From assembly GCF_964194025.1 (NCBI RefSeq), contig NC_134479.1, positions 33,604,001 to 33,668,000 of the forward strand: a DNA stretch of 64,000 nt, in the 5' to 3' direction. This stretch comes from Convolutriloba macropyga. Lineage: Eukaryota. How positions within the stretch are numbered: position 1 is the first letter of the stretch; each line of letters begins with the position of its first letter. This document shows positions 5,896-49,790 of this stretch, in pieces. Both the position numbers and the translations under genes were made by a program. The notes under the pieces were generated by a model. The model worked only from the letters and a program-made list of their open reading frames with translations. It was not told the DNA's origin and ran no database searches.

Positions 5896-5985
5896 AGTAG
5901 TATCCATATCTGCCATGTTACTGGAGGAGGGGGGTCCGGACCCCCCCCCCTACAAGAACTTTCACTCTGTAAAAGTTGATTTCTT
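5896..5985 (+). repeat. Polinton left terminal sequence with GC hairpin (GGGGGGTCCGGACCCCCC)
   Basis: AGTAGT start, palindrome at ~5929-5946; diverged direct copy at ~23967-24051. Confidence 0.75.
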
Positions 5986-6587
5986 GTACTTTTGAAGAAA
6001 CTTTGAGAGTCTTATTGTTTTACCTACTTCGATCTTTTGGATTGTAAGTTCATGTTATGTGAACTCTTGGGAAATAAATTTGGAGAGTTTGGAATATTTC
6101 CTTCCGCGCGCATGAGTGGGCTGTTATGCCTAATTTGAACTTTTATTGAGCTTTCGAAAGTGGGGATTGTTTAAACTTGTCAAGTTTTGTTTACGGTGGG
6201 GGATTTTATGTGGAATTAAATCAAAGCGGAGCGGGCTCTTGGAAACTGAATTTCAAAACAAAATTAAATTAGTGCGGTGTGTTTTATTGATTTTGAAATT
6301 AAATTGCTTTGGTGTATGAAAAGTGTTCCAATTAAGATAAAAGTAAATGTATGGCTGTGAAAGCAGTTTGGAAGTATAAATTTGGTGAGGGGAATAAAGC
6401 AGGGCGCTCGGTGTTAGAACTGAACCGTTTCTTGGCAAATGTTTGGAATAAATTCTTTTCTGCCTGTTAGGTTGAGATAAATGTTAAATCACCAAAATGA
6501 GCCTTCTGAAGAGACTATTTCCTATTTCTTCTCAATTGTATTGCGTCTACAGAGCGAACTAAGTGAAACTTGAAGCTATTAAAAAGA

Positions 6588-6938
6588 ATGCCAGGACACA
6601 AATGTGAGACTTGTGAGCTCACTTTCAACAATTTTCAAGAAAAATTAAAACATTTCACAGAAAATCACAAAAACCGATATATAAAATATTGTTCAAGATG
6701 TCAGGAAGCCATTTATTTTCTTCCTCAGTTTACCAAGCATAAAAAGCACAACAAATATCTTGAAACCAACCCATTATACTGTTCTCGATCTCTTGTTTCG
6801 GGGAAAATATTGGACCAAATTTGCCCTTTCTGCAGGCAAATTTTTTTTTATAAACAGGAGCTCGAGAAGCATTTGAAAAGCTTTTGTCGGTGCAAAGTGC
6901 AAAGAATATCCGACAGGAGGACTGGGAAATTTCCTTAA
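6588..6938 (+). CDS. Polinton C2H2-type zinc-finger protein
   Basis: CETC-X12-H-X4-H, CSRC...HKKH and CPFC-X12-H-X4-C; ATG at 6588; convergent with pPolB. Confidence 0.7.
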   Translation: MPGHKCETCELTFNNFQEKLKHFTENHKNRYIKYCSRCQEAIYFLPQFTKHKKHNKYLETNPLYCSRSLVSGKILDQICPFCRQIFFYKQELEKHLKSFCRCKVQRISDRRTGKFP

Positions 6939-7056
6939 AGTAAGTTTTCTTCTCACCAATTGTATAAAAATATCATTATTAATATTTATCTTTGTATTTT
7001 TAAATTTTCCGTTCTATAAAAGAAGTACTTATTACAATACAAAGAAAAATAACAGA

Positions 7057-10000
7057 TTACTCAGTGTCAGAATCTACAATATAAGCACGGGCACGTTTAA
7101 TCGAGATTACTGGCGATTCCTCATTTTCAGAGAGTGTTACCTCTGAAGAGTTAGTAGATTCAACACTATCTATTTGTCTGAATAAGTTATTGCTTAATGT
7201 TGCTTGCTTCTTTTTGTTGCTGATGCTGGCTAATGTTTCATTCTCACTGCTTGAAGAGCAGCAATCTGGGTTTTCATCAGCTTCATTGAGAATGAACGGG
7301 TTATTGATTTCCTGGTCAGACTCATCACTTTGTTCCGATAAATTTGAAAGGTCAATAACATCATTCAACTCTTCATTAGAGTACGAGGGCTGATGAAAAC
7401 CTGGATCGGGTGTTTCCCAGCCTGAGGCCTCCCCTCCTTCAGGAAGTTCAAACACGTTATAGGGTTCGTTCAATTCGTCTTCCCAGTCGGTTTCGGCACA
7501 CAGTTTTTTTGAAACGTATTCATCACGCAAAGAAAAATGTCCGAAGGGAGTGTTGTTTTTTTGTCTGTATTTATATATCTTTTGTCGTCGTATGCGCAGA
7601 GGGCAATTTTGTTCAAGCACACAGTTTGTAGTTGATGTTTAAGTGTTGATATTTTGATGTTTTCAAGTCTCACTACGTTGCTCGTCTCCAATGTCTCTTT
7701 GAACATTTCATGATTTAATTTGGCTTGCGCGAATTTTTTAGTTCCTTTCGCCGACATTTTGTTTTCGCCATTACTAGCAACAATCGAGTAAAGTTTAGGC
7801 TTAAGGGCACAGAATTCTTCTATTGGCGTTCCTGCAAGTTCGTCTTTGAACTTAAGCACCACCTTTGCATTCGTTTTGTCATAGAGTTTGTGGTCGCTGG
7901 GGAAGTTTGAGAGATCAAAGTGTTTTTTCAGGGTAGAGTTTTTCGTCAAATCATCATAGAAACTATTCGTTTTAACTTTGTATACGAATGAGTCTGTATC
8001 TGAATACAGCAAACTGCACTCTGTTTGTTTTTTCATTACGTTGTAATGAAAATCCAACATAAACAGCTTTGAAAGCTCAAGAATGCTGGCTCCAATAATT
8101 GTTGGTTTGTTCCATACTATCGATTGGACTTTCTTTGTGATAATTGTTAGGTTCTCATCTATGATTTTTATCGATGAAATATTTCCTTTTGATGTTGTTT
8201 TAAGTAGCTCCTCTTCTGTGCGAACAAATTTAACGGACACTCTATTTCTCAAACTTTCACATAGCTTGCCAAAAGTAGAGTTTGACATAAGTTTGTAGAA
8301 ATCCTGATCGAGCTTAGAGCTAGCTTCTTGACGTTTCTGTGTGTTAAGTGCAATATAACTTGCTAACCACTTAGATTGATGAAACTTTACTGCTCGATGA
8401 ACTCGGGTGACCTTAATTCCGCTATCAACATAGAATTTGAGGTTCCGGTAGTGAACAACATAGTTCTTCTTTGGGTGAAACGTCTGTCTCAACTTACTTG
8501 ATTTCGACGAAGTTAGACTTAGAGCGCTTCTAAGAGTTGTCTGATAGTCACTAAGTTCTAGGGTATCGATTGGTTCTTTGTCGGGTATCAATGGGTAGTC
8601 TGCATGTTCATCATGTAGAGCATCAGGGTACTCTAGATCCACCTCAACAATGAAACCAACATCCCCTTCGTCGTCGGTCTGCAAAATTGTTTCTAGTGCA
8701 ACATCTTCAATCAATTCAAACTGATTCAGGGGAAGAGGGAAATGTAACATGATTCCCCCGTAAAGGTTATTAGCATCAATATAAATGATTGATGAGACTT
8801 CCTTTGAGCTATCAAAGTTAGGCAGTAGGGTGTTGTTTGCAATCTCTAGTCTTGAACTGTAGACAGAGGACAGGCCTCCACGTATCATTTTCTCTGCCAT
8901 TTCAAGGATCAGTCGGTCTGTCAACAGCTCAATTTCGGGCTTGCAGGTTTTCAGAAACGCGTTTCCAGAAAGATTTGAAGCTGTGTAGAACTGTGCACAG
9001 TCCAGGCCGTATGTGTCATAGCACACAGAACGCAGCTCCTCGAACCAGCATGACAACTGTAGCACATCGCCAGTGAGATATAGCTCCAGGAATTCCTTCA
9101 GACTTTGGCAATTGAACTCGTTGAAGACAAAATTCAACTGATTGAGTTCCTCACTGGTAACATCAATTTTATTGTCTTTCAAACTGTTTTTCCAGTTTTC
9201 GAGACTGGGAAGAGAAAGTTCTCTTAGTTTACTGAAGTCATTGAAATACGAGTAGGGAAAACTTCCCTTTTTCTTCAACAAGTTGCGTTGCTCAGTGGTA
9301 TAGCCTCGGTAAAAGTTGTCAAGAATACTGAATTTATTGTGAGGCAGAGTTTGTACAATTTTATCGAGGCTGCACGGCATAAACTTGAAACTGTCAATAA
9401 AGCGCATGTACTCGTAAACAGTGACTTCATCTCGCTTCCTTTTTCGTGTTTCAATGAATACACCAAAATTTAGTGCAATGAATTTTTCGTCGTTTGTCGG
9501 TATCACTTCAATTTTTGTTGACTCTGAGGCTGTATGCAAGGACTTAACTATGTGATGTAAGTCATAGTTCATCATGTTGTGGGCAATTACGGGAGTGAAA
9601 TTGAGTGTTCGGCGCTTGAGGTTGCATTCGTCGTGCGCGTAACCGATGAATTGACCACTGTAGTGACAGTGGTCCAACACTTTTTCGTTGTCATTGTTGA
9701 AAGCAACATCACAAATCCAACATCTCGAGAATGTACTTCGCAAAGGGGCGGCTCCAATAAATTTAGGAAATTTCCTTTTCTGATGGTAAAATCACCTTGC
9801 AAGTTTTTCGATTTTTGTAATGAAGCGTTTCATACAATCGGGGCCTGTGTAAATGTCAAAATGTATTGGTTCAGGGTTGTTATGTTCGACCACAATTAAG
9901 CAGTAACTACACGGTAAATGGTGTTCCAAGGCACACGTGCTTGAAGTCATTGGGTTACTTTTCGCTGTTGCTACAGGCACAAGTAGAGATTCTAAGTCCA

Positions 10001-11526
10001 AGTATACTACAAAAGGTGAAAACCACCTCGCGGCGTAGTTTTCGAACTTCAACTTGTTGTTAGCAGGATCGGGCATCGTGATTTGCAGAGAATCATTTTC
10101 CAAACACGATTTCTGATGTGCTAATAGCACATCCGCTGACGAACAAATGTGATAACAGTTCCTGCACAGCTCATTTCTATCACGATACTCTTTACCGTTG
10201 ATTTTAGCGACAAGTTTCATCAAATTGATAATGAGTACGTAGTGGTATGTCTGTTCGTTTTGTAGGAGCAACAAATCGAGTACGAATGGGAAATTTTTGC
10301 CTCGTGACAGCCTCAATGGTAGTAATTGCTTCGTCTGATACCTTAAATATGAAAAATCTCAGACTTTTTCTGGATAGTGAGGTTTTTTAAACAGCAAAAT
10401 GTTAAGAACTGTTATGATGAACGAAAAATTTTTGTTCCCCTTTTTTTAACAACTTTTCCTTTTTTTGCTTTTTTTTACAAAAAAATCACATTTAAATACA
10501 TAGTGATACAATTTGTTCTTACCTGAACACATTAACTTGTACTTCATTGAGTTCCTCAAACTTTGATATGTCCTGTAGACTCATTGGCATTTCAAAGTCC
10601 CCTTTCGGTTGCTTTGCTGATGGATTTTGTTTGCTGTACGTCAGAACGTTGGTGCGTGATCTGAAGCATGGTGTTGGCGGTTCTAATTTTTCTTTTTTGT
10701 AAACCAGATGGTATCCAGCTGTGTAGCAGTAAAGGAAACAGTTATCATCGTTTGCATTGTGTATGTTTAACAAGTTCGAATCTCTTCTTAGCGGATATTC
10801 CTCATGAAACGGTATGAAACTGCTTCCCCGGACAGGCACATATTTGGCCAGCTTCAGGGTAACTTTGTCTATTGAAAGTAGCTGCCAACCACTTCCGTAG
10901 CTTGAAAACGAAACAAGTTTTGAAACAATGTTGTCGACAAAGTCTTCAAAAATTTCATCCGAAATCCCTGAATGATATACGATTCGTGTATTTGTATTGA
11001 AAAACACGCTTAATTTTTCTTGATCGTCATCCAAAGGTTTCTGAAGCGTCATTTCCACTACAAGTTGAACCTTTTGTGGAAACCTGTGCGTGTGTTTTTG
11101 GACTTTTTTCGAAATTTCGCCCCGGTTCCTGAACAGATATTCCATAATGTCTAAATCTCCCTGGGCCGGCTCAAATTCGTAGTAGTTTACACCATTGCTA
11201 ATTGAACTGACTGTTGGTCTAGACGTATCAACTTCGTGGGTTTCCAAGTCCAAAATGGGCAGACCATGCTCATTGTTTATGTGCTCAGCATATTCGAGTT
11301 TTGTTTGAAAACCTACGCGACAAGTATAGCAGACTTTTAAAATGGGCTGTTGATGAGAAATATGAGAATGCTTACGCAGTGTAGGAAGACTTCTAACGTT
11401 CTCGAAACACTGAAAACAGCTGAAAGTCGGTATATCTGGAAAAATTTTATGTATATTCTTCATATGCTTGTTAAGGGACCTTCTGTTGGAGAGCTGAGCA
11501 GAACAGTTTGGACACTGAACTGGCAT
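7057..11526 (-). pseudogene. polB: Protein-primed family B DNA polymerase (pPolB) with N-terminal C2H2 fingers, EndoVII-like insert and acidic tail. Two exons (11526-10523, 10341-7057); in-frame TGA at 9792-9794; 1-nt frameshift near 7545
   Basis: Exo motifs YLDLES, HNMMNYD, YLTGDV; pol motifs RGGLS, YIDANNLYG, KLMSNSTFGK, YSDTDS, LKPKLYS; CWIC...DHCH..G...G.AH..CNL; ORFs 9792-10316 and 7470-9743 share a frame; the TLPFGH end is restored by shifting into ORF 7057-7620. Confidence 0.92.
10342..10522 (-). other. Spliceosomal GT-AG intron (181 bp, phase 2) in pPolB
   Basis: AG|GTAAGA donor, CTTAAC/CTCAC branch-like motifs, TTTAAG|G acceptor; splicing gives continuous VNVFR-YQTKQLLPLRLS...DLLLL...HYVLI. 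Confidence 0.85.
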
Positions 11527-12229
11527 ACTGTACAGAAGTACGGAACACAGTTTTCAAGCTTTGAATGGTGTTGAGACTTTTGAATAATAGGGTAAGAAAT
11601 ATAGAAAATAATGATTGATAACGTTGAGAATGATTTTGAGATATTTCTAAGTTGTGAGAGTTTTTAAAAAGCTTAGGAAATATTAATTTATAGTAAAAGT
11701 CTGAAAATCTTTTAAATTTTTTTGCAACTAAATAGAGGTACGTATTCTTTGCTTTATGTTTTCCAATTTATTAAAACTTTTTTACCCAAAAGTTGACGAA
11801 CAGATAAAGCTGAATTTTCTGCAATCAAGTCAAGAAATGAAGTTTTGATTGCGTGGCGCTACACAGGTTTCGTTTAATTCTTGAGCACACCTCCAGTTTA
11901 CAGCTTTAGGTAGTACAATGTTTTCTAACGCTGAGGGGGGCGTAATTAAATATAATTCTTATCATGACAATTGATAATATACAAAATTCAACTATGTGTG
12001 AGTCCTTTGAGTAAAACATAGGCAAAATATAGCAAGAACAATAAACAGGCTTATCAGTTCTTCTTAATTATTGCATGTACTCCCATAATAAGTTTTCTTT
12101 GTATTGTGGAATTTGAGTTGTAGTTTGAGTTTATTGCAGAAATATATATAAGAATAGTAAGAAAATTCTATCGGCCAGTATATGCTTAGTTATTGTTAAT
12201 CGTGTTGTAATGAATAATAAAGCAAAGTG

Positions 12230-12775
12230 AGAAAGTTTTCATTCAAATTGAGTGCAAACCTAACACCAAGTTCCCACTTCACAGATAACGAAAATTCTTT
12301 CCCTTCAATGTTTGCTTGGTGATAACACTAGTCTTTTCATTAACCAGTAAACTTGATCGAAATTCGAATTTTACCCATTGGTTGTTGTAGAGCAGGGAGT
12401 GTCATATCAAAAGAAAACGGTTCATAAAATTGAACTCTAACCTAACCCCTGAACGTTTCAGATAACAAAAACTGTTTTATTTCCCTAATTTTGGACTGTG
12501 TAATAAGCACAATTTTTTCGTTAAACTGTAAAGTTTACTAAATTTAGAAACGTACTGAACGGTTACTGTAGAGCAGGGAGTGTCATATCAAAGGAAAACG
12601 TTTCATGAAACTGAACTCCACCTAAATCCTGAACGCTTCAGATAACAAAAACTTAAGTTTTCTAACTTTTGGGCTGTGTACTAAACACAATCTTTTCATT
12701 AAACAGTAAAGTTGATTATATTTAGAAACGTACTGAAGGGTTACTGTAGATCAGGGGAGGATCAAATCAAAGGAA
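12230..12775. repeat. Three tandem ~177-180 bp units in the Polinton non-coding region
   Basis: CAGATAAC anchors at 12282, 12459, 12639; GTAGA(G/T)CAGGG at ~12387, ~12568, ~12746. Confidence 0.85.
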
Positions 12776-13549
12776 TGCCTTCTGCTCAGCGAATATATGT
12801 ATAGTAAACGCAGTATTTTGAACAAATATGAGATTTTCATTGTTTTTGTTGATCCCCGCAAGATCAGAGAGAAATTCATGAAAAAGTTTGAATCAAAAGT
12901 TCATTATGAAAAAATTTTTTCAATGGAGCCTAAAAAGTATTAAATTGTAATTCCAGATAACTTACCTATGGATTCAGGTAGAAAAATCAAAAATCGTATG
13001 TCAAGTTAATGAGTTAAGGCTCAAAATAACATTAAAAATTGCATTTTTTGTGAATTTCTGTTGAAAAATAGAAAATATCTCTATTAATTTTTAACAGTAC
13101 CTTCATTCTATTAATCGATTCCTAACAGTTAGTTCAATCACTTTCACAGTACCTCGTGAAAAGTGGACGCAAGTTCATTAAAACTCTAAAATTTTGTTTC
13201 CAGAGTTCTTTTCTGAATATCATTTTTCATATAGGAACCTTTAAAAATTATGTTTCTCAGACATTTGAATTGTTTCTTCAAACAGATTTTGTGTTCACTG
13301 TAAGCAGAGATATCTCAATTTGACTCTCAGCCCTCAGAAGAAAATAATTGTTCTGCAAAAATGTCAAGATAGTTTATTTCTTATTTGATTTTTTGGTTCC
13401 TTACTTAGAGATAATGAAAAATTATATATTCTGAAGAAAATACAATTATGGAAATCCAATTGTGATCAATATGCGGCGAATGAATAAGAATACAGTTAGG
13501 ACACCATACTGTTTTCAAGTTTTATAAAATCAGCGCATCAAAAATGAAT

Positions 13550-14305
13550 TTATATTGAGTTGTCAAAGAGTTCTCGCATAGCTGAAATTTTTCTTTTTTT
13601 TGGAGCATTGTCAACTGAGGGGTTTTCAGTGTTTTCGGGAGTTAAAGAAAAGTTTTTGGTAGGTGTATCTTCTTGTTCTTCAATTCCATTGTAAGTTGTG
13701 GGAGTCTCAAAGTTGTCTCCAGAAAGGTTTTTCAACAGATCGTTTGTGTCTGTAGGACTGTCAAAGTTTATCCATAAGTTGTTGCTTTTCAGATTCGAAA
13801 AAAGTGAAGGACTCTGCTCTGAGCTATCTGGGCTGAGTGTTGGACTGGGGTCCGCAGTAGGCGTGCAAAATGGTGACGGATTTGTAGGAGACTCAGGAGA
13901 TTTTGGAAGCCCCCAAAGATCCGCTAGGTTGTCGCATGCTTGCAAAACACCGAGCTGGTTCTCATAGAATGGTACACAGTCGCAATCGTATTTGTATATT
14001 AATTTTTTGGTTCCAATTGGTAAGTTCGATATATCATATTGTTCCAGAGGGTGCAAAAGTGTTGTTGGTGGTACAATTCCCCCTGATGTAATGAATCCAC
14101 TACCAGTAGTTTCGGGTTTGTCGGGTAACTGAGCCATAAAATTGATGAATATTTTTGGAAGCATGCAATGGTCGTGAGTTATCCACTCTTCTTTTTCATG
14201 AGAACGTTTTTGTTGTACAATTACTATGAAGTTTTCATGTACAGTTTGATAGATAATTGTGCGTTCACATGACAAATCGCTTTCTGACAAAATATGGTAA
14301 GACAT
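13550..14305 (-). CDS. Polinton accessory protein with Ser/Pro-rich disordered C-half and NLS
   Basis: 251-aa ATG ORF inside the element; PKKRK near the C-terminus; no family recognised. Confidence 0.6.
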   Translation of the reverse strand: MSYHILSESDLSCERTIIYQTVHENFIVIVQQKRSHEKEEWITHDHCMLPKIFINFMAQLPDKPETTGSGFITSGGIVPPTTLLHPLEQYDISNLPIGTKKLIYKYDCDCVPFYENQLGVLQACDNLADLWGLPKSPESPTNPSPFCTPTADPSPTLSPDSSEQSPSLFSNLKSNNLWINFDSPTDTNDLLKNLSGDNFETPTTYNGIEEQEDTPTKNFSLTPENTENPSVDNAPKKRKISAMRELFDNSI

Positions 14306-14951
14306 TGCAATTGCTCTGGAAAATTCAGATGAACTGTTAAGTTATAATTGAAGTTAAACAACAATAACGAAAATTTTGAAAGATAATGTTTCCTTGAAGC
14401 AAATACTAGTAATGTTGAAACGAAAAATTGAATCAAAAATGAATTGAGGTACAGTTATTTTAAACAGACACTTGTTTGCAGTATTACAAGCATGAACTTG
14501 AATATAGAATTGAATGAAAATTTCAACAAGTATGTAGGTTGTTCAATGTCGTTAAAGCGTCAAGTTTTGGCACACGTGTTGGGTTCACTTTATTGATCAA
14601 GTTAGTCTCTTGACACACCTAAGGTCATACATGTACTCTTCATTTTGGTTTTATCTGTTAAACCAAACATTAAAGTTGTATTGTTTCCAGACAAGACCAC
14701 CCTGAAGTTAAGGCAGGCTCTAGTACCATGGGAATTTGTATGCATACATAGGATAAAGACATTTATGCGTTTGCCTACAGGACTAACGTACAAATACTGT
14801 TAACTCAATAGATCATATTTCTTATCAGTTAACCAATTCTATTTTTAGCGTCTGCGTGTAATATCTATAAAATTTTGGTGCACGAAATCATTGACACGGT
14901 TTTTCTTAAAGCAAAACAGTTAGTTGAATATATTGAATAAGAAACACAAAA

Positions 14952-15284
14952 ATGCCTTTTACAGCGGAGACAGACGCTGAGTTTGGAGACGCTCATTTTG
15001 ACGTTTCCAAAAGTGAAAAACGTTTGATCAGAGCAACAGTGAAAACTTATGACAAAACAGGAACTTATATCTTCCTAAAGTTGTTCAAAAAAGTTGGTCA
15101 AGAGTTTGAACTTCAACAGAGAATAACACTGACTTTAGAAGAGTTTGAAAAGTTATCGAAAAAGAACGGAAAAATTCGTTCTGCTGCTAACGACAACACT
15201 GAAAACGATTCTACTCTGAAAGCTCCCTCTGCAAAGAAACCTAAATTAAAACAAAAAGACGACGAACACGAATTCTCTGAATAA
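14952..15284 (+). CDS. PC4/Sub1-like ssDNA-binding protein (putative)
   Basis: R.TVKTY...TYIFLKLFKK.....QRITLTLEEFEKL resembles the PC4 pattern (VTV..F.G..YVDIRE......KGISL..EQW..L); basic NLS-like tail. Confidence 0.55.
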   Translation: MPFTAETDAEFGDAHFDVSKSEKRLIRATVKTYDKTGTYIFLKLFKKVGQEFELQQRITLTLEEFEKLSKKNGKIRSAANDNTENDSTLKAPSAKKPKLKQKDDEHEFSE

Positions 15285-15304
15285 TTTAAAGAGCTCAATT
15301 GAAA

Positions 15305-15973
15305 ATGGTAGAAGCTATGTATGAACGTTCGCCTGGTTACTTCAAGCAATTTCAAAAAAATTTCAGGTTTTTTATCACTGAAGAGAAACCAAAATCAACG
15401 TTTGCTAAAGTTTCAGCCATATGCATGCACACTGATAGCCTTTTTTGTGGAGTTTTACCTGCTAATCATTATCATGTTTTGTTCGATGTGTCAGATGTTG
15501 CTACAGATTTCTTTAAAAAAAACAAACTTTATTCTGTTCCATGCTTATATACAACTTTCAATTGTTTATTCTCGAATGGCAAGGACTTGGAGACAATTGG
15601 TACGGTTTTCGAAAAATTGAAGCTAGCTGTGGAATACAATGGTCTAACGTTACAGACGAAGGGAGACACTACAAACATTCAAAAACGTTTACCCAATTTG
15701 GTCAATGGCGTTGGCTGCAAAACTCATTGGGCAGTTGGAAGTACTGCTTTCAAAACTCTAGAAAATAGTGTTGAGAAAAAATCAAACCAACAATTGCAAA
15801 CTGACCGATTGTCTACTGAAACTCTTAAGAGATTTGAGAAAATTTTGCATGGTCCTCATTCTGGTGCTTTCTGTCAAATAATGGATATCTTTTTGAGTGG
15901 TTATGGAAAATTGGATATTGACAATGATGTTTTGTGTGTTCGCTTAGTTTATGAAGAAAAAATAAAGTTTTGA
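15305..15973 (+). CDS. Polinton accessory protein with HUH-like motif (HYHVLF)
   Basis: ~222-aa ORF from ATG 15305; FFIT ... HYHVLF ... Tyr; function inferred only. Confidence 0.55.
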   Translation: MVEAMYERSPGYFKQFQKNFRFFITEEKPKSTFAKVSAICMHTDSLFCGVLPANHYHVLFDVSDVATDFFKKNKLYSVPCLYTTFNCLFSNGKDLETIGTVFEKLKLAVEYNGLTLQTKGDTTNIQKRLPNLVNGVGCKTHWAVGSTAFKTLENSVEKKSNQQLQTDRLSTETLKRFEKILHGPHSGAFCQIMDIFLSGYGKLDIDNDVLCVRLVYEEKIKF

Positions 15974-16007
15974 AAAAAAAATTATTTCAATACAAAAGTT
16001 AGTAATG

Positions 16008-16442
16008 TTAGAGCATCATATGAAGCGCAAAACGTATCAAATCAACATCACTCATCTTTACAAATTCTTTTTCATCAAAAAGGTAGTGAGCAATATAAAT
16101 GCAAAATAAGCCACACAATATTGAGTTTGGTTTTTGAATTGGTTGGTTTCTAAGCAATTCAAACACAGTTTGAATATTACCAGCTGAGGAAGCAAGTCTA
16201 TTGTGTAAATGTTTATATATAGTTAGATTTTGTCCCAGTGGATCTGCAAAAATATATTTTCCATTTTTCCGACAAATAAGTGTCCAATGTGTTCCAATTG
16301 TTTGAGAAGTTGATACATTCACTATAATGAAGCTGTTCTGAGATAGGCTAAGCGGAAAATTATCAGCAGCAAATACACCATGAAATTTGTACTTCAAACG
16401 TTTACATCGTTGAACGAGGTTGTTTATTTCATCTTCATCCAT
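16008..16442 (-). CDS. Adenain-like cysteine (maturation) protease
   Basis: GTHW, FADPLG and Q...SILCGLFC catalytic H/D/Q/C motifs. Confidence 0.9.
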   Translation of the reverse strand: MDEDEINNLVQRCKRLKYKFHGVFAADNFPLSLSQNSFIIVNVSTSQTIGTHWTLICRKNGKYIFADPLGQNLTIYKHLHNRLASSAGNIQTVFELLRNQPIQKPNSILCGLFCIYIAHYLFDEKEFVKMSDVDLIRFALHMML

Positions 16443-17767
16443 CAGTTTGTGAGAATATGATTTTTTGAAACTCTCCGAGCAGAGTCAATGAAAATTGTGC
16501 TAGCTTTTTCACCAATTATAAAAATTTCAATGTTGCCTGGTAAGGCCGCTGAAAACTTAAGTTCAATTGAAATTGAACAATTGGTGAGTTCGGGGTGAAT
16601 AAAATCATGTGACGCCTGCTGAGTGCTGGTGAGATCAAACACCATAATAAAATGGTCAGGGTATTCAGACAAAGTTATTCCATGTCCATTGTCAATATAG
16701 GCTAAATCTGACATTGTGTTGAAGTACATGCGTTTTACGTCAGCTGTGTTTATGGGACTGTCTGCAACGGGGAGTCCATTTCGATAAATACATATCTGCT
16801 CCAGATTAAATTTACGAAAGTGAAAAGGATTGAGTTGTTTGCTTCCTAAGAAAGCTTCATTTGTGTTAAGACAAATGGCAAGACGTCGAATAGGCTCCCT
16901 GCTAAAAACATCTTCTTGTTTCCAACTTTGCGAACCAGTAGAAGCCAGAAATGTTTTTGTTATGGTTTCCAAGTAAGGATAGGACGCTGGGCTTGTTAGT
17001 AAAGTTTTTTCAATGGCAGAAACGACGTCGTCGTTCAATGTCATTTTTCTCACATACAAATTAGCTTCTTTAATTTTTACTTTGTATGATTTTCCAGCAT
17101 CGTCAGATATTACAACAAAATCATCTATTGATCTTCGAAAGGAAATTTGCAATGTGACTCCACTCAAAAGATGTCGATCACATGTAAAAAAATCTACTGC
17201 CACTTTTCCATAAAAGGTACATTCAGCAGATTGTCTAACCAAAGTTTTTCGTCTGTTAACTTCAGCTGTTGCTATCGCTCCAGGATTATCCTCGTACGAA
17301 TAACCTTGGCAAGCCAACCAAGTAGCCTTTGCGTCTTTGTTGTGAGAAAATTCCGTTTCAATGAAACTTTTGTGAGCATAATTTCCATTTGCATTTGAAA
17401 TTTTCAGTCCGTTGGCAGATACTGTACAGTCTGAAAAGAGTGAATGTAAAACATTATTACAAAAGTAAGGAGCGTCTGTTTTGGTTATATCTGCTGCAGC
17501 TCCAGCATCATATTTTAAGTCAGCTTCAGAAGCCTGAACTATCTTGCATTTGATTTCCAGGAAGATTTTTTGCAGATCAATAAAATTATTTCTGTCTCCA
17601 GCAACCTCAAACTCAAGCATGGGTCCGTTAGGACTGTAAACTGGCCCTACTTTTTGACAAAAGCTCCCATCAAAAGTTACAAGAAGCGCTGGTTTTTCGA
17701 ATAAATCCAAGGAACTATGTGTTGCCTCTGTTGGTAACATATTACCGATCATCTTTAACTTTGGCAA
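16442..17767 (-). CDS. Double jelly-roll major capsid protein (Polinton PY/hexon-like); likely ATG at 17740
   Basis: SSLDLF..P, LEFEV.G...FIDL, NNVLHSLFS, NYAHKSFIET, NPFHF, FDLT motifs typical of Polinton MCP; ~435 aa; located between the protease and penton genes. Confidence 0.88.
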   Translation of the reverse strand: MPKLKMIGNMLPTEATHSSLDLFEKPALLVTFDGSFCQKVGPVYSPNGPMLEFEVAGDRNNFIDLQKIFLEIKCKIVQASEADLKYDAGAAADITKTDAPYFCNNVLHSLFSDCTVSANGLKISNANGNYAHKSFIETEFSHNKDAKATWLACQGYSYEDNPGAIATAEVNRRKTLVRQSAECTFYGKVAVDFFTCDRHLLSGVTLQISFRRSIDDFVVISDDAGKSYKVKIKEANLYVRKMTLNDDVVSAIEKTLLTSPASYPYLETITKTFLASTGSQSWKQEDVFSREPIRRLAICLNTNEAFLGSKQLNPFHFRKFNLEQICIYRNGLPVADSPINTADVKRMYFNTMSDLAYIDNGHGITLSEYPDHFIMVFDLTSTQQASHDFIHPELTNCSISIELKFSAALPGNIEIFIIGEKASTIFIDSARRVSKNHILTN

Positions 17768-18185
17768 AGAAATCCGACCGACTTCTCTTTGGCTGTTTGT
17801 GTTTTGAAATGACTACCTTTCTTTTTTGGATTCGTTGCCTTGTTTTTGAACCTGAGCGTCTAGATCGTCTACGAGTTATTCGTCTTTGTCTCATTCGCAG
17901 TGCCAATGAGCCTCCTGTTTGCTTTTTGACTGTATTTGATATCGTGTTTTTCAGCGCTTGCTTTGGAGATTTTTTTTTACTGACAACGTCCATTAACTCT
18001 GGTACGCTCTGTAACAGAAGTTCTTTTCCAACTCGTTTTGCTGCTGGTAAAACAAATTTTCTTGCAATAGGTAGAGCGATTCTTCCGATACCACTTGCTA
18101 AAGCTCCAAAGCCGCTACCTCTTTGCCTATAGTGCCCAGAAAAATAAGGCAATGCAGATGCTTGATTGGTGTAGTATGAATCCAT
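17742..18185 (-). CDS. Basic core/membrane-active virion protein (adenovirus pVII/pVI-like by analogy)
   Basis: YY.NQ...LP.F.G...QRG.G.G motif conserved in Polintons; amphipathic segment; QTGG; Arg-rich tail. Confidence 0.7.
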   Translation of the reverse strand: MDSYYTNQASALPYFSGHYRQRGSGFGALASGIGRIALPIARKFVLPAAKRVGKELLLQSVPELMDVVSKKKSPKQALKNTISNTVKKQTGGSLALRMRQRRITRRRSRRSGSKTRQRIQKRKVVISKHKQPKRSRSDFFAKVKDDR

Positions 18186-18190
18186 TGCTT

Positions 18191-19075
18191 TTACTCACCA
18201 AATTTTTTAAACTGTAACGTCAAAATGACTTTTCCGGTCCCTGAAAAAGGGACTAATTGACCTGTTTCGGTGCGTAGTTCTATAGAAATCGACTGAATCG
18301 TATTTGAAAGAAGTTTTTTGTAGTCCAAATTCGAAAAAACTATTCTGTGTGTTGGTTCAAGCTCGCAGACACTACCGTTTTTCAATCGTTGTTTTGAATC
18401 AATGACTCGTAGTAAAGGTGCTTTCGCATCGCCCACGTATTGATATTCAATAATGTTTGTATAAATGAATATCAAATGTTTCCCGGCGCACAGATCAGCT
18501 GGAAAGTCACCCATAAAAGCTTTAGTATCATCTTTTTTCATCAGTTTATTTGCAGTTGTGTCCATTTTGTAGCCAATGTGTGTTCCTCGTCCATCAGGGA
18601 CACCCCTGAAACCAATAATGCTAGGAATTTCATCGCTTGGAAACGTAATTCCCTCGTATTTTCCAAAGACAATTTCAAATTTACCGGAACTTTTAATTTC
18701 TCTGAAAGAAAAATTGGGTAAACCAACAGTTCTTTTAATGGTAGCTAACAACTGTGGCACAGTATCAAAAGTTCCTGGCATGAAAGCTAATCGCTCACCG
18801 TTGTATGGACGTGATATGACATTGGCTCCAGAGCTATTCCGTTGGTGATCTTCTAAACCACTTAAACTATAAGAAATTAGGACTCCGTTTGTGATGTGTT
18901 CTATTTTTGTTGGAAAAATAATTTCACTCAAAGCTACTCTCCAGTCTCCCGACAGTTGTATTTCATCATTGAAAAAATTCCTGAATGAAGCCAATGTGTT
19001 TTGATCGAAGATCTCCATCGAAGCGGAGGAGATTACATGTACCGTAAATTCATCTTCAAAACGTTTACTTGCCAT
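18191..19075 (-). CDS. Minor capsid protein (Polinton PX/penton-like)
   Basis: S.ASM..F..NT..SFRN......L.G.W.VALSEI; IYTNIIE.QYVGD..APLLRVI; ISIELRT..G..VPF..GKV..TL.F. Confidence 0.85.
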   Translation of the reverse strand: MASKRFEDEFTVHVISSASMEIFDQNTLASFRNFFNDEIQLSGDWRVALSEIIFPTKIEHITNGVLISYSLSGLEDHQRNSSGANVISRPYNGERLAFMPGTFDTVPQLLATIKRTVGLPNFSFREIKSSGKFEIVFGKYEGITFPSDEIPSIIGFRGVPDGRGTHIGYKMDTTANKLMKKDDTKAFMGDFPADLCAGKHLIFIYTNIIEYQYVGDAKAPLLRVIDSKQRLKNGSVCELEPTHRIVFSNLDYKKLLSNTIQSISIELRTETGQLVPFSGTGKVILTLQFKKFGE

Positions 19076-20177
19076 TTTGCACAGGCGACTCTCGAACTAA
19101 TTGGAGTTCGGGTTGATAGAACTTACCCTGAATAAATTCCTTATCGGCATCGATAAGAGAATACGTTGGAGGGTTCAATGTTGGGATCGACGAAATTTCA
19201 AGAATCTCGTCTGTAGAAGACTGTTTGTAACCCTTTCCAAACGTCTCCTCTTTTTTCAGTATTCGTACAAGATCACCAACAAAAAATTTTGGTTTTTGAG
19301 AATATGTTGTATTCACAATCAACGATACCAGTCGCGGAACGTCTTTTTTCGTGACTTTGTTTGGAGCAAGATTGATTGTTCGATTAACTCTAGAATTGAT
19401 AGTTTTAACAAATGAATCCAGTTTATCTAGATATGAATAGGTCCACTTTTCTTCTAAGTATCTGTATATTATATTTTTGAGGGAACGTATATTTCTTTCA
19501 GCAAAAGCAGACTTTTTCTCACTGAACGTACTGTATAAATGAATTCCGCGTTTATTGCAGAGGGCTTTGAAAGCACCGAGGAACTCTGTGCCATCATCGA
19601 CCCAAACTTTTTTAGGTTGCTTATGTTTGATCATCTTTTTGAAAGCCTCTGCAGTTTCTGTAGCGTATTTTGTTTTTAGTGGTTCAACTCTGAGATATCT
19701 TGACAGACAGTCAACTGCAACAAGAAGGTATTTTACACCACTGTTGTACTTTGCAAGTTTATCAACAAATGCTAGATCTACGGACCAGATCTCATTTAGG
19801 TCGTTAACAATTACTTTAAGCCTTGGAAATCTGAGGCGACGTGAACGATATTTGGTGAAGGATGGTTTCGTTTCCAGATACATTTTTACTTTTTTCATTG
19901 ATAATTTACTCAAATTTTGAAGTCTTTTTGCGTTTCCAAATGACGCAGGTCCTTTTAAATAGAGGTTATCAAGTTTCTTCACATCATCTATAGAAAGCCC
20001 AGTGTTTTCTACTCGTGTCTTCGATTGTCTTCTTTTTGCTCTCATCGACTTTTGGCTTTGCACTTTTTTCTTTTGTCTCAGATCTTCCTCTTGGTTTTTG
20101 TTGCTGTTTCTTTTGTTTTCGAGTCGGTTGCTCTTCCTCTTCTTCGCTGTAGAACTCATCGAGAACTTTTTTTGCAT
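19065..20177 (-). CDS. Retroviral-like (RVE) DDE integrase of the Polinton; true start probably downstream (~20045)
   Basis: WSVDLAFV, VAVDCLSRY, VDDGTEF, KSAFAERNIRSLK, F.KGY, G.FY..EL; no C-terminal chromodomain. Confidence 0.92.
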   Translation of the reverse strand: MQKKFSMSSTAKKRKSNRLENKRNSNKNQEEDLRQKKKVQSQKSMRAKRRQSKTRVENTGLSIDDVKKLDNLYLKGPASFGNAKRLQNLSKLSMKKVKMYLETKPSFTKYRSRRLRFPRLKVIVNDLNEIWSVDLAFVDKLAKYNSGVKYLLVAVDCLSRYLRVEPLKTKYATETAEAFKKMIKHKQPKKVWVDDGTEFLGAFKALCNKRGIHLYSTFSEKKSAFAERNIRSLKNIIYRYLEEKWTYSYLDKLDSFVKTINSRVNRTINLAPNKVTKKDVPRLVSLIVNTTYSQKPKFFVGDLVRILKKEETFGKGYKQSSTDEILEISSIPTLNPPTYSLIDADKEFIQGKFYQPELQLVRESPVQNGK

Positions 20178-20751
20178 GAGTATTGTAAACCAAGTGAGCT
20201 GCTATATCAAGTTCACTCAATATTTTGGAATACTTTTGCACGTCAATTTTTTTGGTAGGTTGTTGTAAATTGTACAAGAAATTTGTCACCTTCACTCCTT
20301 GAGGTTCATCCTCAATATGGAGAACATTATTCTCTTCACTAATAGAAACAGTATCGGAATCAAAAATTTTTTTCAGGATTATTGCAGCTCTTTTTGTTTT
20401 ATTTTCATCCATTAGTTTTAGTTCCAGCATTATTGAGTCAAAGGCTGAATCTTTCCGTTTTTTCACTACAGGCTCGATTTCACTGTCATCACTCACAAAA
20501 GATTCTGATTTAACATCATCTGGATCACTTGTTCCATCATTGATACTCCTTTTTCTCGTGATCAGTCTATCAGTGCTGGTGTCAGCATCTTTTTTTCCAC
20601 TGCTCTGCTCAAAGTTTGGATTAGATCTTTGTAGGAGCGATAACTGAGTAGCTTTTTGTTGATATATTGGATTATCAAAAATTTCTTCCTTGGTTGGATT
20701 TTTTGATATGAACATCCTCTTGGGGATCAAAACAAATTCTTCTGCATGCAT
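19984..20751 (-). CDS. Conserved Polinton hypothetical protein (M.AEEFVLIP start)
   Basis: ATG overlaps the upstream TAA (TAATG at 20753-20749); ~255 aa; typical position upstream of the integrase. Confidence 0.6.
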   Translation of the reverse strand: MHAEEFVLIPKRMFISKNPTKEEIFDNPIYQQKATQLSLLQRSNPNFEQSSGKKDADTSTDRLITRKRSINDGTSDPDDVKSESFVSDDSEIEPVVKKRKDSAFDSIMLELKLMDENKTKRAAIILKKIFDSDTVSISEENNVLHIEDEPQGVKVTNFLYNLQQPTKKIDVQKYSKILSELDIAAHLVYNTHAKKVLDEFYSEEEEEQPTRKQKKQQQKPRGRSETKEKSAKPKVDESKKKTIEDTSRKHWAFYR

Positions 20752-21050
20752 TATTTGACTTTTAAGTAAAGGTAGCATGAGAATAATATTGCCTTGATAA
20801 GTTCTGATTTTCTCACCAAAATAAATCGCTTTTTCTTCAGACTTGTTTTCTTTAATAATAGCTGCTGAAATGAGTCCTCTTGATTTTTTAGTAGCTGTTT
20901 GTTGACTGGAACATTGCCATTGATTACATTGAGCAAACACTCACACAGAATATTTATAAAAGTCTTTGGTGCTTTTTTGAGGAACTTTCTGAAATTACTA
21001 TCAGACAGCTCGAGCATTTGCTTTAGCATACATAGCTCTTTCTCTCTCAT
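20751..21050 (-). CDS. Small conserved Polinton protein (LCEC..N...GNVP motif)
   Basis: FLKKA...FINILCECLLNVINGNVPV ... SLKKKR pattern, recognised from Polinton small ORFs. Confidence 0.65.
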   Translation of the reverse strand: MREKELCMLKQMLELSDSNFRKFLKKAPKTFINILCECLLNVINGNVPVNKQLLKNQEDSFQQLLLKKTSLKKKRFILVRKSELIKAILFSCYLYLKVK

Positions 21051-21693
21051 CTGTTAAATTAGTTATGACCGCTTTGGAGGAAGGTAGATAAAAAATTGTT
21101 GGACCTGGTTTTACAATATTTGAACAATAACGCAAGGAGTCTGAAGTTTTTGGATCCAAGTCGATGAGTAAGTGTCCAAAGGGTAATTTTGTTGCTAACT
21201 CGTAGCGTTCTTTTAAAAAACTTGTGTTGTTTAACTGTTTGCCAATATAGGTGATCTGCTGTATATCTCTAGGTGATTTGAACAAAATGATGTGGGTTGT
21301 GTTGAGATCAATTGTTCTTGACCATTTACTCTGTTGGAATAAGTTATGTTTAACGTAAATGACGCTAATATTTCTATGACGTCCAGCAGTTGCGAGTTTA
21401 GAAAACTCTTTGTCATTGAAAATTTCCTCGCAAGAATCGTCAAAAACAAGCAGACAGTTTTCCAGCTGTGAAATGAAATCAAATCAAGAAAACTTTGTGA
21501 AAAAAATGTTCAAGTTACGCTCTATAGAGCTGAACTTAGGTTGCTCATGTTGATAGAAGTAGTAAATAGATTTAAATTTTGGGTAAAAGGTGTTTCTCAG
21601 TAACATTTGGAATATGAGCTCAGTTTTACCACAGCATGATGGCCCACAAACAGCCATGAATAGTCTATCGCTTGTTGAAATTATCTTGTTCAT
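21001..21693 (-). pseudogene. A32/FtsK-like genome-packaging ATPase with one in-frame TGA (21484-21486)
   Basis: Walker A GPSCCGKT; reading through the stop gives LLVFDD (Walker B), GRHRNISV, HNLFQQ, FKSPRD, PFGHLLIDL in the same frame. Confidence 0.88.
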
Positions 21694-21992
21694 AGCTTCG
21701 GATTAGGAAGCGCATAGCCAACTGTGCATGAAAGCAATGAAAACCAAAATGTTGACTCTTCACAATCAAGATGGAAAAACACAAGTTTAATCAAGGACAC
21801 ACCAATAAGAAAGAGTATTATTACGATTTGAGTAAAATACACTACTTCTGATCGTGGTAGTCTATAGTTACAAAATTTCCATGAGCGTCTCTCTTGATTT
21901 TCTTCATTGAAAACTAAATCATTCAAACCTATTCCAGCAGGGCAATCTATCTGATCTTCTTTATCACTCATTTTAAAAGACGTTTTGATCAA
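21690..21992 (-). CDS. Small two-TM membrane protein of Polinton-like viruses
   Basis: W.FC...RSEVVYFTQ + hydrophobic helix + W.SLLS..VGY.LPNP. Confidence 0.65.
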   Translation of the reverse strand: MIKTSFKMSDKEDQIDCPAGIGLNDLVFNEENQERRSWKFCNYRLPRSEVVYFTQIVIILFLIGVSLIKLVFFHLDCEESTFWFSLLSCTVGYALPNPKL

Positions 21993-22020
21993 AAATGAAT
22001 TAAAACATCTGTTTTTTGTG

Positions 22021-22299
22021 TTAGCTCAATATTTTGTTAGTAACTCTCTCAATCATAAAAAATTCATATGTAGTATATCTAGAGTCTTTGTCTTCTTTCT
22101 TGTAAGTCACTTTGTAGTTCGATTGCATGCCAGAATCCTTTGCGAAGTAGACAATTGACTCCACCTTTCCTTTGCTGACTACCTGCTTTATTTCCTCAGG
22201 GAGACTTTCGTCGTCCAGGGTCACTTGAACCGGTGCTGGCGACTTGTGAATAGGTAAAGGGGTTAGTTTCATTCTTCTCATTTTCTCTTGTAAAGACAT
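22021..22299 (-). CDS. Hypothetical Polinton protein
   Basis: 92-aa ORF in the tightly packed minus-strand cluster. Confidence 0.45.
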   Translation of the reverse strand: MSLQEKMRRMKLTPLPIHKSPAPVQVTLDDESLPEEIKQVVSKGKVESIVYFAKDSGMQSNYKVTYKKEDKDSRYTTYEFFMIERVTNKILS

Positions 22300-22537
22300 G
22301 GTACATTTGAAAATATTCGAGCAGTGAAAGATATTTCTTCAGCGTCTCAACCTCAGCTATGTTGCAAAGAATTTGTTGTTTCCTCAGAATGGATTGCCCA
22401 CGTGATTCTATTTTTTCCTCTCTGACCAAAGATACAGTTATTTGATTATCATTCGTTATGCAACTGCATACTGTCAAACTTGGAGATAAATTCACTTGAA
22501 GAACTGAAGGAGCTACCTTCTCCACTCGACGGCTCAT
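22196..22537 (-). CDS. Hypothetical Polinton protein
   Basis: 113-aa ATG ORF overlapping its neighbours in the cluster. Confidence 0.4.
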   Translation of the reverse strand: MSRRVEKVAPSVLQVNLSPSLTVCSCITNDNQITVSLVREEKIESRGQSILRKQQILCNIAEVETLKKYLSLLEYFQMYHVFTRENEKNETNPFTYSQVASTGSSDPGRRKSP

Positions 22538-49112: not shown

Positions 49113-49790
49113 GAGAAAAAGATAAAGCGAAACAGAAAAAACACAGACGATGTAAGTGTCATTTCGTCGGCACGATCTTGTATATCTACAACTAGCAATG
49201 TCGCAAGATCATTGAAAATGAGAGTACCAAAAAGAAACCCGAAATACGATGAGGCATTCAAAAATCGACCCGACCTTACACAAATATTAAATTTCAGTCC
49301 AATCGCGCCGCAAGTGGTATCATCTGATATAGCAGGGCCATCTGGAACACAAACAACCTCCTCGACTCAAAAACAACCTACACCCATCTTGCGAAAGACT
49401 TCGAAACGCAAAATCACGGTCAGCGATACATCCGATTCGGATACGTCTTCTATTAGAAAAAGCAAAAGGACACTGAAGAAAAAATCCCAAAAATCGCAAA
49501 CAATTGTCGAAAAAGTTCGTAACACAGAAGGTTACACTGATTACCAAGACACTGGCATTGCGGGAGGATCAAATCAAGGAGATGAGTACTCGCAAAACCA
49601 ACCAAGGGAGATGACAGTTCTCCAGGCCGAAAATGCTGAAAATAGCGACAGCGAGTGATCTTCGATAAAGAAACTTTCATAAACTTCTATTCTATCTATT
49701 ATTTAATATTTTATTACTTACTAACCGGTGAATATTTATTAATTTTCTGATTTTAATCTAGTAAATTAATTTTTCCCCAAGAGGGGGAAA

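Follow-up and report, generated by a model that had tools for sequence, protein, structure and literature searches.

A putative inherited U2-type intron in the polymerase gene of Polintons from the acoel Convolutriloba macropyga

The window analyzed here, a stretch of 64,000 nucleotides from the genome of the acoel Convolutriloba macropyga, contains a GT..AG segment at 10342-10522 that interrupts a Polinton polymerase gene (pPolB) in phase 2. Based on comparisons with sister copies and homologs, this segment, referred to as intron A, is very probably an ordinary, inherited U2-type intron that is constitutively spliced, the host spliceosome removing it before the polymerase is synthesized. The features of such introns that were identified included fixed, frame-restoring GT/GC-AG ends, conservation of those ends and an interior that lacked coding constraint. 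An earlier note on this DNA had proposed a spliceosomal intron in pPolB and a dependence on host splicing; the sister-copy and homolog comparisons support this, and the polymerase-bearing Polintons of this host likely depend on host splicing.

Analyses of the window copy indicated that removal of the segment restores the reading frame. The 5' piece of pPolB, counted from the ATG at 11526, is 1004 nt long (334 codons plus 2 nt), which puts the intron A site in phase 2. When the two pieces were translated separately, the 5' piece ended in ..VQVNVF and the 3' piece began with YQTK.., matching this phase. The GC content of the segment was 0.25 compared to 0.40 in the upstream exon. The description of an AT-rich GT-AG segment within the polymerase gene was thus borne out by composition, by the restored phase and by its presence at all the sister loci scored (below), as was the reported end of the unspliced frame, since retention brings in an immediate in-frame stop at 10519-10521, directly after the split codon. 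A branch-point-like TTAAC was found 64 nt before the 3' end. Most lineage representatives had a YTRAY motif 57-81 nt before the intron end, a tally made without a chance control; no YTRAY motif was present at that distance in two loci (L099 and L128). The 3' end was T-rich. Contigs from two of four public sequencing runs covered the whole stretch including the segment, so intron A is not an assembly artefact. No 10341-10523 joint was found in the contigs of the four runs, all from one sample, a result that speaks neither for nor against splicing. An Rfam scan of window positions 9800-13600 returned one chance-level match, outside intron A, and nothing on the segment itself. The 134-194 AT-rich bases of the intron A copies are also short for group I or group II self-splicing introns.

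Table 1. Positions in the window of intron A, pPolB and its predicted domains, and other mobile-element features.
Feature	Position	Strand	Remarks
Polinton/Maverick copy	5896..24051	.	18-kb element; AGTAGT left terminus at 5896
pPolB exon 2	7470..10341	-	remaining vOTU part, exonuclease and polymerase; disrupted in the window copy
Predicted vOTU catalytic His codon	10242..10244	-	exon 2; invariant in 83/83 rows of alignment A2
Intron A	10342..10522	-	181 bp, phase 2; donor CAG|GTAAGA, acceptor TTTAAG|G
pPolB exon 1	10523..11526	-	zinc fingers, terminal-protein-like domain, first part of vOTU-like protease
Predicted vOTU catalytic Cys codon	10738..10740	-	exon 1; nearly invariant in alignments A1 and A2
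Terminal-protein-like domain, residues 113-228	10843..11190	-	little-finger/PAD fold
Three C2H2-type zinc fingers, residues 1-88	11263..11526	-	from model; Pfam zf-C2H2 only below cut-off
Polinton protease	16008-16484	-	PF00770, E 3e-6; adenain-like
Polinton integrase	19065-20201	-	rve, PF00665, E 1e-8
Polinton packaging ATPase piece	21001-21483	-	PF04665, weak in window; passes the cut-off in a sister copy
BEL/Pao LTR retrotransposon coding region	25649-31597	+	DUF1759, Peptidase_A17, rve, DUF5641; broken by single stops
Gypsy-like retrotransposon	43779-49658	+	1777-codon gag-pol frame: zf-CCHC, RT, RNase H, integrase

The interrupted gene belongs to an element that extends from 5896 to at least 24051 and has genes characteristic of Polintons/Mavericks, namely an rve integrase, an adenain-like protease, a packaging ATPase and a pPolB with TP-vOTU-exonuclease-palm organization (Table 1). 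The right terminus was not visible in the window; a terminal-like motif was present near 23965-24020, and a candidate major capsid frame at 16445-17740 (432 residues) had no Pfam, PHROG or PDB sequence match. Upstream of pPolB, at 11600-13500, is about 2 kb of AT-rich sequence with no long frame and with internal repeats near 12280-12775. Exon 2 of the window copy has an in-frame stop at 9792-9794 and ends prematurely near 7470-7550, so this copy cannot give a full polymerase even if spliced. These breaks are peculiar to the window copy, since frames of 1,037-1,129 codons remain open behind the intron A segment in several of its sisters.

Sister loci were obtained from the 1.18-Gb host genome through a DNA search (46 matches) and a protein search, of which the best 150 of 1474 candidates were considered. 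From the 131 loci fetched, 27 duplicate places and two loci from one copy deleted across the donor were removed, leaving 102 that were scored. All 102 had the segment at the same codon, with lengths of 134-194 bp, and its presence in the window is thus not due to chance. GT was present in 100 of these copies, AG in 94 and both in 92; sister copies had been named as a check in the earlier note, and this comparison agreed with its reading. Lengths modulo three were distributed 34/28/40, all three classes being occupied. Across the five main lineages, identity was 0.51-0.61 in the interior of the intron (shuffles, 0.47-0.53) compared to 0.64-0.80 in the 120-nt flanks and 0.69-0.79 in the flank peptides. 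Among 23 close copies there were 67 indels in 4,139 intron bases and 26 in 45,867 exon bases (16.2 versus 0.57 per kb), and mismatches were 46.6 per kb in intron A versus 21.1 per kb in exons. Against this, many of the intron indels were in A/T runs, which are prone to slippage and mis-sequencing. The AAG acceptor, a less common form, in 37 of the 102 copies and the missing donor +5 G in most lineages also count against the assignment. The sister copies are related, those with intron A forming one clade, and all these counts therefore refer to non-independent events.

The segment could be viewed not as an intron, but as an old inactivating insertion or introner-like element that was amplified in non-autonomous copies borrowing their polymerase. 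AGGTA was present on both junctions in the window copy, resembling a target duplication, and introners are known to enter Polinton-like viruses of dinoflagellates (PMC12166617). However, both exons were conserved while the interior diverged, GT/AG ends persisted across lineages, and long frames followed the segment in several copies. Terminal inverted repeats did not exceed 8 nt in the seven representatives inspected, and the copies of the lineages interrupted at a second site (site B, below) that were checked, the likely helpers, were themselves interrupted. We consider an inactivating insertion very improbable. An introner identity for the segment was not supported: the longest end-to-end inverted match was 5-8 nt, and all the fetched DNA-search loci (41 of 46 match rows) were in pPolB.

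Proteins from the databases were consistent with a precise intron. Among the 120 homologs listed, 58 aligned on both sides of site A, the gap between the pieces never exceeding three residues. Of the 22 nearest uninterrupted homologs, 21 had exactly one residue at the site, Arg in 12 of them. Such a single residue is expected from the split codon. Named members of the same 90% protein cluster are from C. macropyga. Two RefSeq models (XP_075250842.1 and XP_075250923.1), both predicted, cross the exact intron A junction; a third predicted model, XP_075264263.1, counts against the assignment in using the same donor with a later acceptor. At the protein level, four relatives that are 32-36% identical in exon 1 (P0392, P0394, P0395 and P0397) end at, or a few codons past, site A, with P0392, P0394 and P0397 reading some codons beyond it, and P0181 and P0136 have in-frame, stop-free, F/L-rich inserts of about 18 and 24 residues at the site. 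No related locus was confirmed in metagenome and viral contigs. In the host genome, a protein query uninterrupted at site A was continuous across it in all 150 places scored (the best 150 of 1950). At site A in the loci without the intron (L148-L197, 50 loci with overlaps) the Arg codon was CGA or CGG, with one AGA, and never AGG; these copies therefore hold no cryptic AG|GT there.

Structure models were used to place intron A within the protein. The domain order of pPolB was TP-vOTU-EXO-PALM, as described in PMC11161782. The model of exon 1 had three finger units, a domain at residues 113-228 and a low-confidence tail. This domain matched the little finger/PAD of Y-family polymerases (Z 8.8, 8.4 and 8.1; rmsd 2.7-3.1; 98-107 residues aligned), and the same fold was assigned to the terminal protein in PMC11161782. 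The modeled zinc-finger units and LF/PAD-like domain agree with the earlier description of the exon-1 product as a zinc-finger/terminal-protein part. Downstream is a predicted OTU-like protease, in which Cys33 is nearly invariant and His138 invariant. When a RefSeq record crossing the junction was modeled, mean pLDDT was 90 and the junction was inside a strand (residues 99-107). The OTU region was modeled with high confidence when whole and with pLDDT below 50 when cut at the intron, a comparison in which alignment depths differed (19 versus 83 rows). Residues 14-144 of the model matched yeast Otu2 (Z 7.8, rmsd 3.5, 100 aligned), although this match was middling, ranking 48 of 50 in the whole-model search. 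The next domain matched the N-terminal part of the phi29 polymerase (Z 15.5). In these models, intron A splits the predicted OTU-like protease between its Cys and His.

The position of the intron raises the possibility that its retention is regulated, in that a kept intron A would give a separate zinc-finger/terminal protein carrying an inactive half-protease, and so an adenovirus-like excess of primer protein over polymerase. In 97 of the 102 copies, retention leads to a stop right after the split codon, the predicted product would hold the whole terminal-protein fold without the His, and donors are often weak at +5. Adenoviruses and a coral polinton have split TP and pPolB genes (PMC11161782). 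However, the stop is a by-product of the U1 match: a GTAA donor in phase 2 gives a stop anyway. The inserts of P0136 and P0181 are in-frame and stop-free, the frames of P0392, P0394 and P0397 continue for some codons, lineages without intron A are abundant in the host genome, and vOTU cleavage already provides a route to free terminal protein. Poly(A)-signal hexamers were not enriched, occurring in 41 of the 102 intron A copies, fewer than the shuffle mean of 70, with none in the window copy. Based on these observations, we regard regulated retention as unlikely, and the switch between terminal-protein and polymerase output suggested in the earlier note was not supported. Intronic polyadenylation of intron A was rejected on the hexamer counts.

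Where copies continuous at site A were extended, they had a different intron. All 20 of them carried, close to the C-terminus, a phase-1 segment of some 146-205 bp (site B, following KxYS) with GTATGT, GTTAGT or GCAAGT donors and a CAG acceptor. Another search found a segment at site B in 25 of 25 loci (about 89-159 bp; donors GTGAGT, GTAAGT and GTAAAA), and in 12 of 12 further stretches, five of them places already counted, the frame ran through A but was broken at B. There were thus six different donors, GCAAGT included, with YAG acceptors at one position, and the acceptor AG was 8 nt before the same Lys codon in 39 regex matches among 57 B loci. A GC-AG intron, GAAG|GCAAGT ... TTTCAG, was fixed at site B throughout one Polinton lineage (L185-L189, L191-L194, L196 and L197). 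GC-AG ends with an otherwise ideal donor are typical of U2 introns. The other pPolB lineages checked in the host genome, which lack intron A, therefore have a different intron, near the C-terminus. In the window copy, both site B (about 7770) and a third candidate site, C, are free of introns. Tandem repeats of pPolB-containing segments were also observed within single loci of the host genome, at C15 15.00-15.01 Mb, C4 3.74-3.76 Mb, C2 36.23 Mb and C8 65.13-65.16 Mb.

Site C was recognized in seven proteins of one branch (P0051, P0052 and P0054-P0058) that end just after FHY(K/S) with VS or VG; the site is immediately before the YSDTDS motif. Judged from these protein ends, site C is a probable third intron position in pPolB; it was absent from every host-genome locus scored. 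At site B, 26 of 64 near-clade database proteins end or have an insert and 13 run through, labels that are noisy and include two false calls (P0002 and P0003). Of 46 distant proteins (36-40% identical; those named are from molluscs and a spider), none ends at B and one has an insert. A FastTree tree of 102 of the 138 rows, with the 36 distant rows left out, showed A and B states scattered over the near clade and the host-genome intron A copies as one branch (support 100). From these comparisons, the pPolB clade appears to have at least two intron positions, and probably three, each retained in some lineages and lost from others. The scatter would be read most simply as patchy loss of old introns, but recombination between polymerase lineages could also have produced it.

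The Polinton of the window (5896-24051) and those of L132-L147 were observed to be mosaic. Among diverged subfamilies, identity was 66-79% in the polymerase half and 87-97% in the half with the integrase, protease and ATPase (about 15.5-24 kb); in one copy (L136-L137) the identity switched within 12-13 kb. This pattern suggests polymerase-module swapping among Polintons, as in nematode Polintons. Contig depth on the integrase/protease/ATPase half was about 20-40 times higher.

The distribution of the two introns within the host genome also bears on whether an intron as such is needed. A protein query uninterrupted at site B crossed that site at 87 host-genome places. Of the 84 examined, 77 have intron A, two have its donor but are broken beyond and five were unscorable. 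Among the 109 copies scorable at both sites, 77 had intron A only and 32 the site B intron only, with no copy having both or neither. The queries made from proteins uninterrupted at the site in question, A or B, which were meant to catch intron-free copies, gave copies with the other intron. A long (4-kb) intronless message might be poorly expressed or silenced, with any intron acting as a "self" mark; HUSH silences long intronless transgenes (PMC8770142), and an endogenous giant virus shows an enrichment of introns in its latency genes (bioRxiv 10.64898/2026.10.09.758095). In its widest form, the proposal is that the whole animal Polinton clade keeps at least one pPolB intron as a self mark or splicing gate, that one or the other of two ancestral introns was lost in turn but, in this genome, never both, and that intron A makes protease assembly and polymerase synthesis dependent on the spliceosome. 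However, the 109 copies come down to roughly a single A clade plus six B lineages and thus to few independent events, and the counts rest on the best 150 candidates in each search. Five near-clade proteins (P0014, P0015, P0019, P0021 and P0146) are continuous at all three sites, and there was no intron-like indel peak within the coding part of the capsid/integrase half. We therefore view the keeping of at least one intron, in its simple and its widest form, as a tentative addition to constitutive splicing, somewhat less likely than not. Constitutive splicing remains our first choice by far, with regulated retention ranked below both.

If intron A is constitutively spliced, host RNA polymerase II would transcribe the pPolB gene and splicing would link the exon for the zinc fingers and terminal protein with that for the protease, exonuclease and polymerase. 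The terminal protein could then be released by the protease thus rejoined, in line with the proposal of PMC11161782. A message left unspliced would meet the immediate stop and give a 335-residue product without the His, and it would probably be wasted. Host splicing would be obligatory for a working protease and polymerase, and intron A would be old and inherited with the polymerase module.

In adenoviruses, the pPolB and TP of the E2B region are related to those of Polintons and are expressed via host splicing, with leaders spliced onto the frames, and the vOTU is inactive. Intron A differs in lying inside a domain that is predicted to have both catalytic residues. Adenoviruses also have a separate TP gene (PMC11161782). 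The closest likeness is with the Polintons/Mavericks (eupolintoviruses, adintoviruses) of that report, which have the same TP-vOTU-EXO-PALM pPolB, an LF/PAD terminal protein and OTU-like Cys/His residues, the difference being that pPolB is here split by an intron of spliceosomal type. The statement in the earlier note that Polinton genes are usually annotated as intronless is in keeping with published surveys of core genes. Intact vertebrate Polintons, "intact" having meant intronless, were reported to be without introns (PMC8097293), according to that survey in agreement with Kapitonov and Jurka 2006, and nematode Maverick core genes are described as intronless, with introns in cargo genes (Widen et al., bioRxiv 10.1101/2022.07.12.499685). 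In the nematode elements, as here, introns travel inside the element, but in captured host genes and not in a core replication gene. A further survey filtered on long frames, with a 900-residue minimum (PMC10748475). The accessible portions of five other sources (PMC8502044, PMC11296320, PMC8547959, PMC12220804 and bioRxiv 10.64898/2026.07.28.741278) describe group I introns in protist elements and no spliceosomal polymerase intron. The literature within reach of our search, which lacked most subscription papers, supplements and Repbase, yielded no report of a Polinton pPolB whose spliceosomal intron was inherited; Repbase records may already note spliced genes in Polintons.

Spliceosomal-type introns do occur inside other elements of this kind. 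Those of dinoflagellate Polinton-like viruses are mobile, multi-copy and mostly young introners, about 25% of which are in coding regions (PMC12166617); the intron described here has instead a fixed position across deep lineages and no inverted repeats. The punuivirus, an integrated dsDNA virus, has short GT-AG introns (mean 176 bp) that were missed by earlier annotation (bioRxiv 10.64898/2026.10.09.758095). That virus, a giant nucleocytovirus, infects a green alga and has its introns in latency genes, with RNA support, whereas the present case is one gene of an animal Polinton and is known from DNA.

What appears from the sequence comparisons to be an old intron in the pPolB of a virus-like element is at odds with the intron-free description of the core genes. 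Surveys with long-frame filters would count spliced copies as decayed or annotate them without their terminal protein or C-terminus. The many A and B copies within one genome mean that intron gain, precise loss and any selection for at least one intron can be counted. An inherited polymerase intron would imply nuclear transcription by RNA polymerase II and splicing throughout the history of the clade, and the intron may be a control point for the host or for the element.
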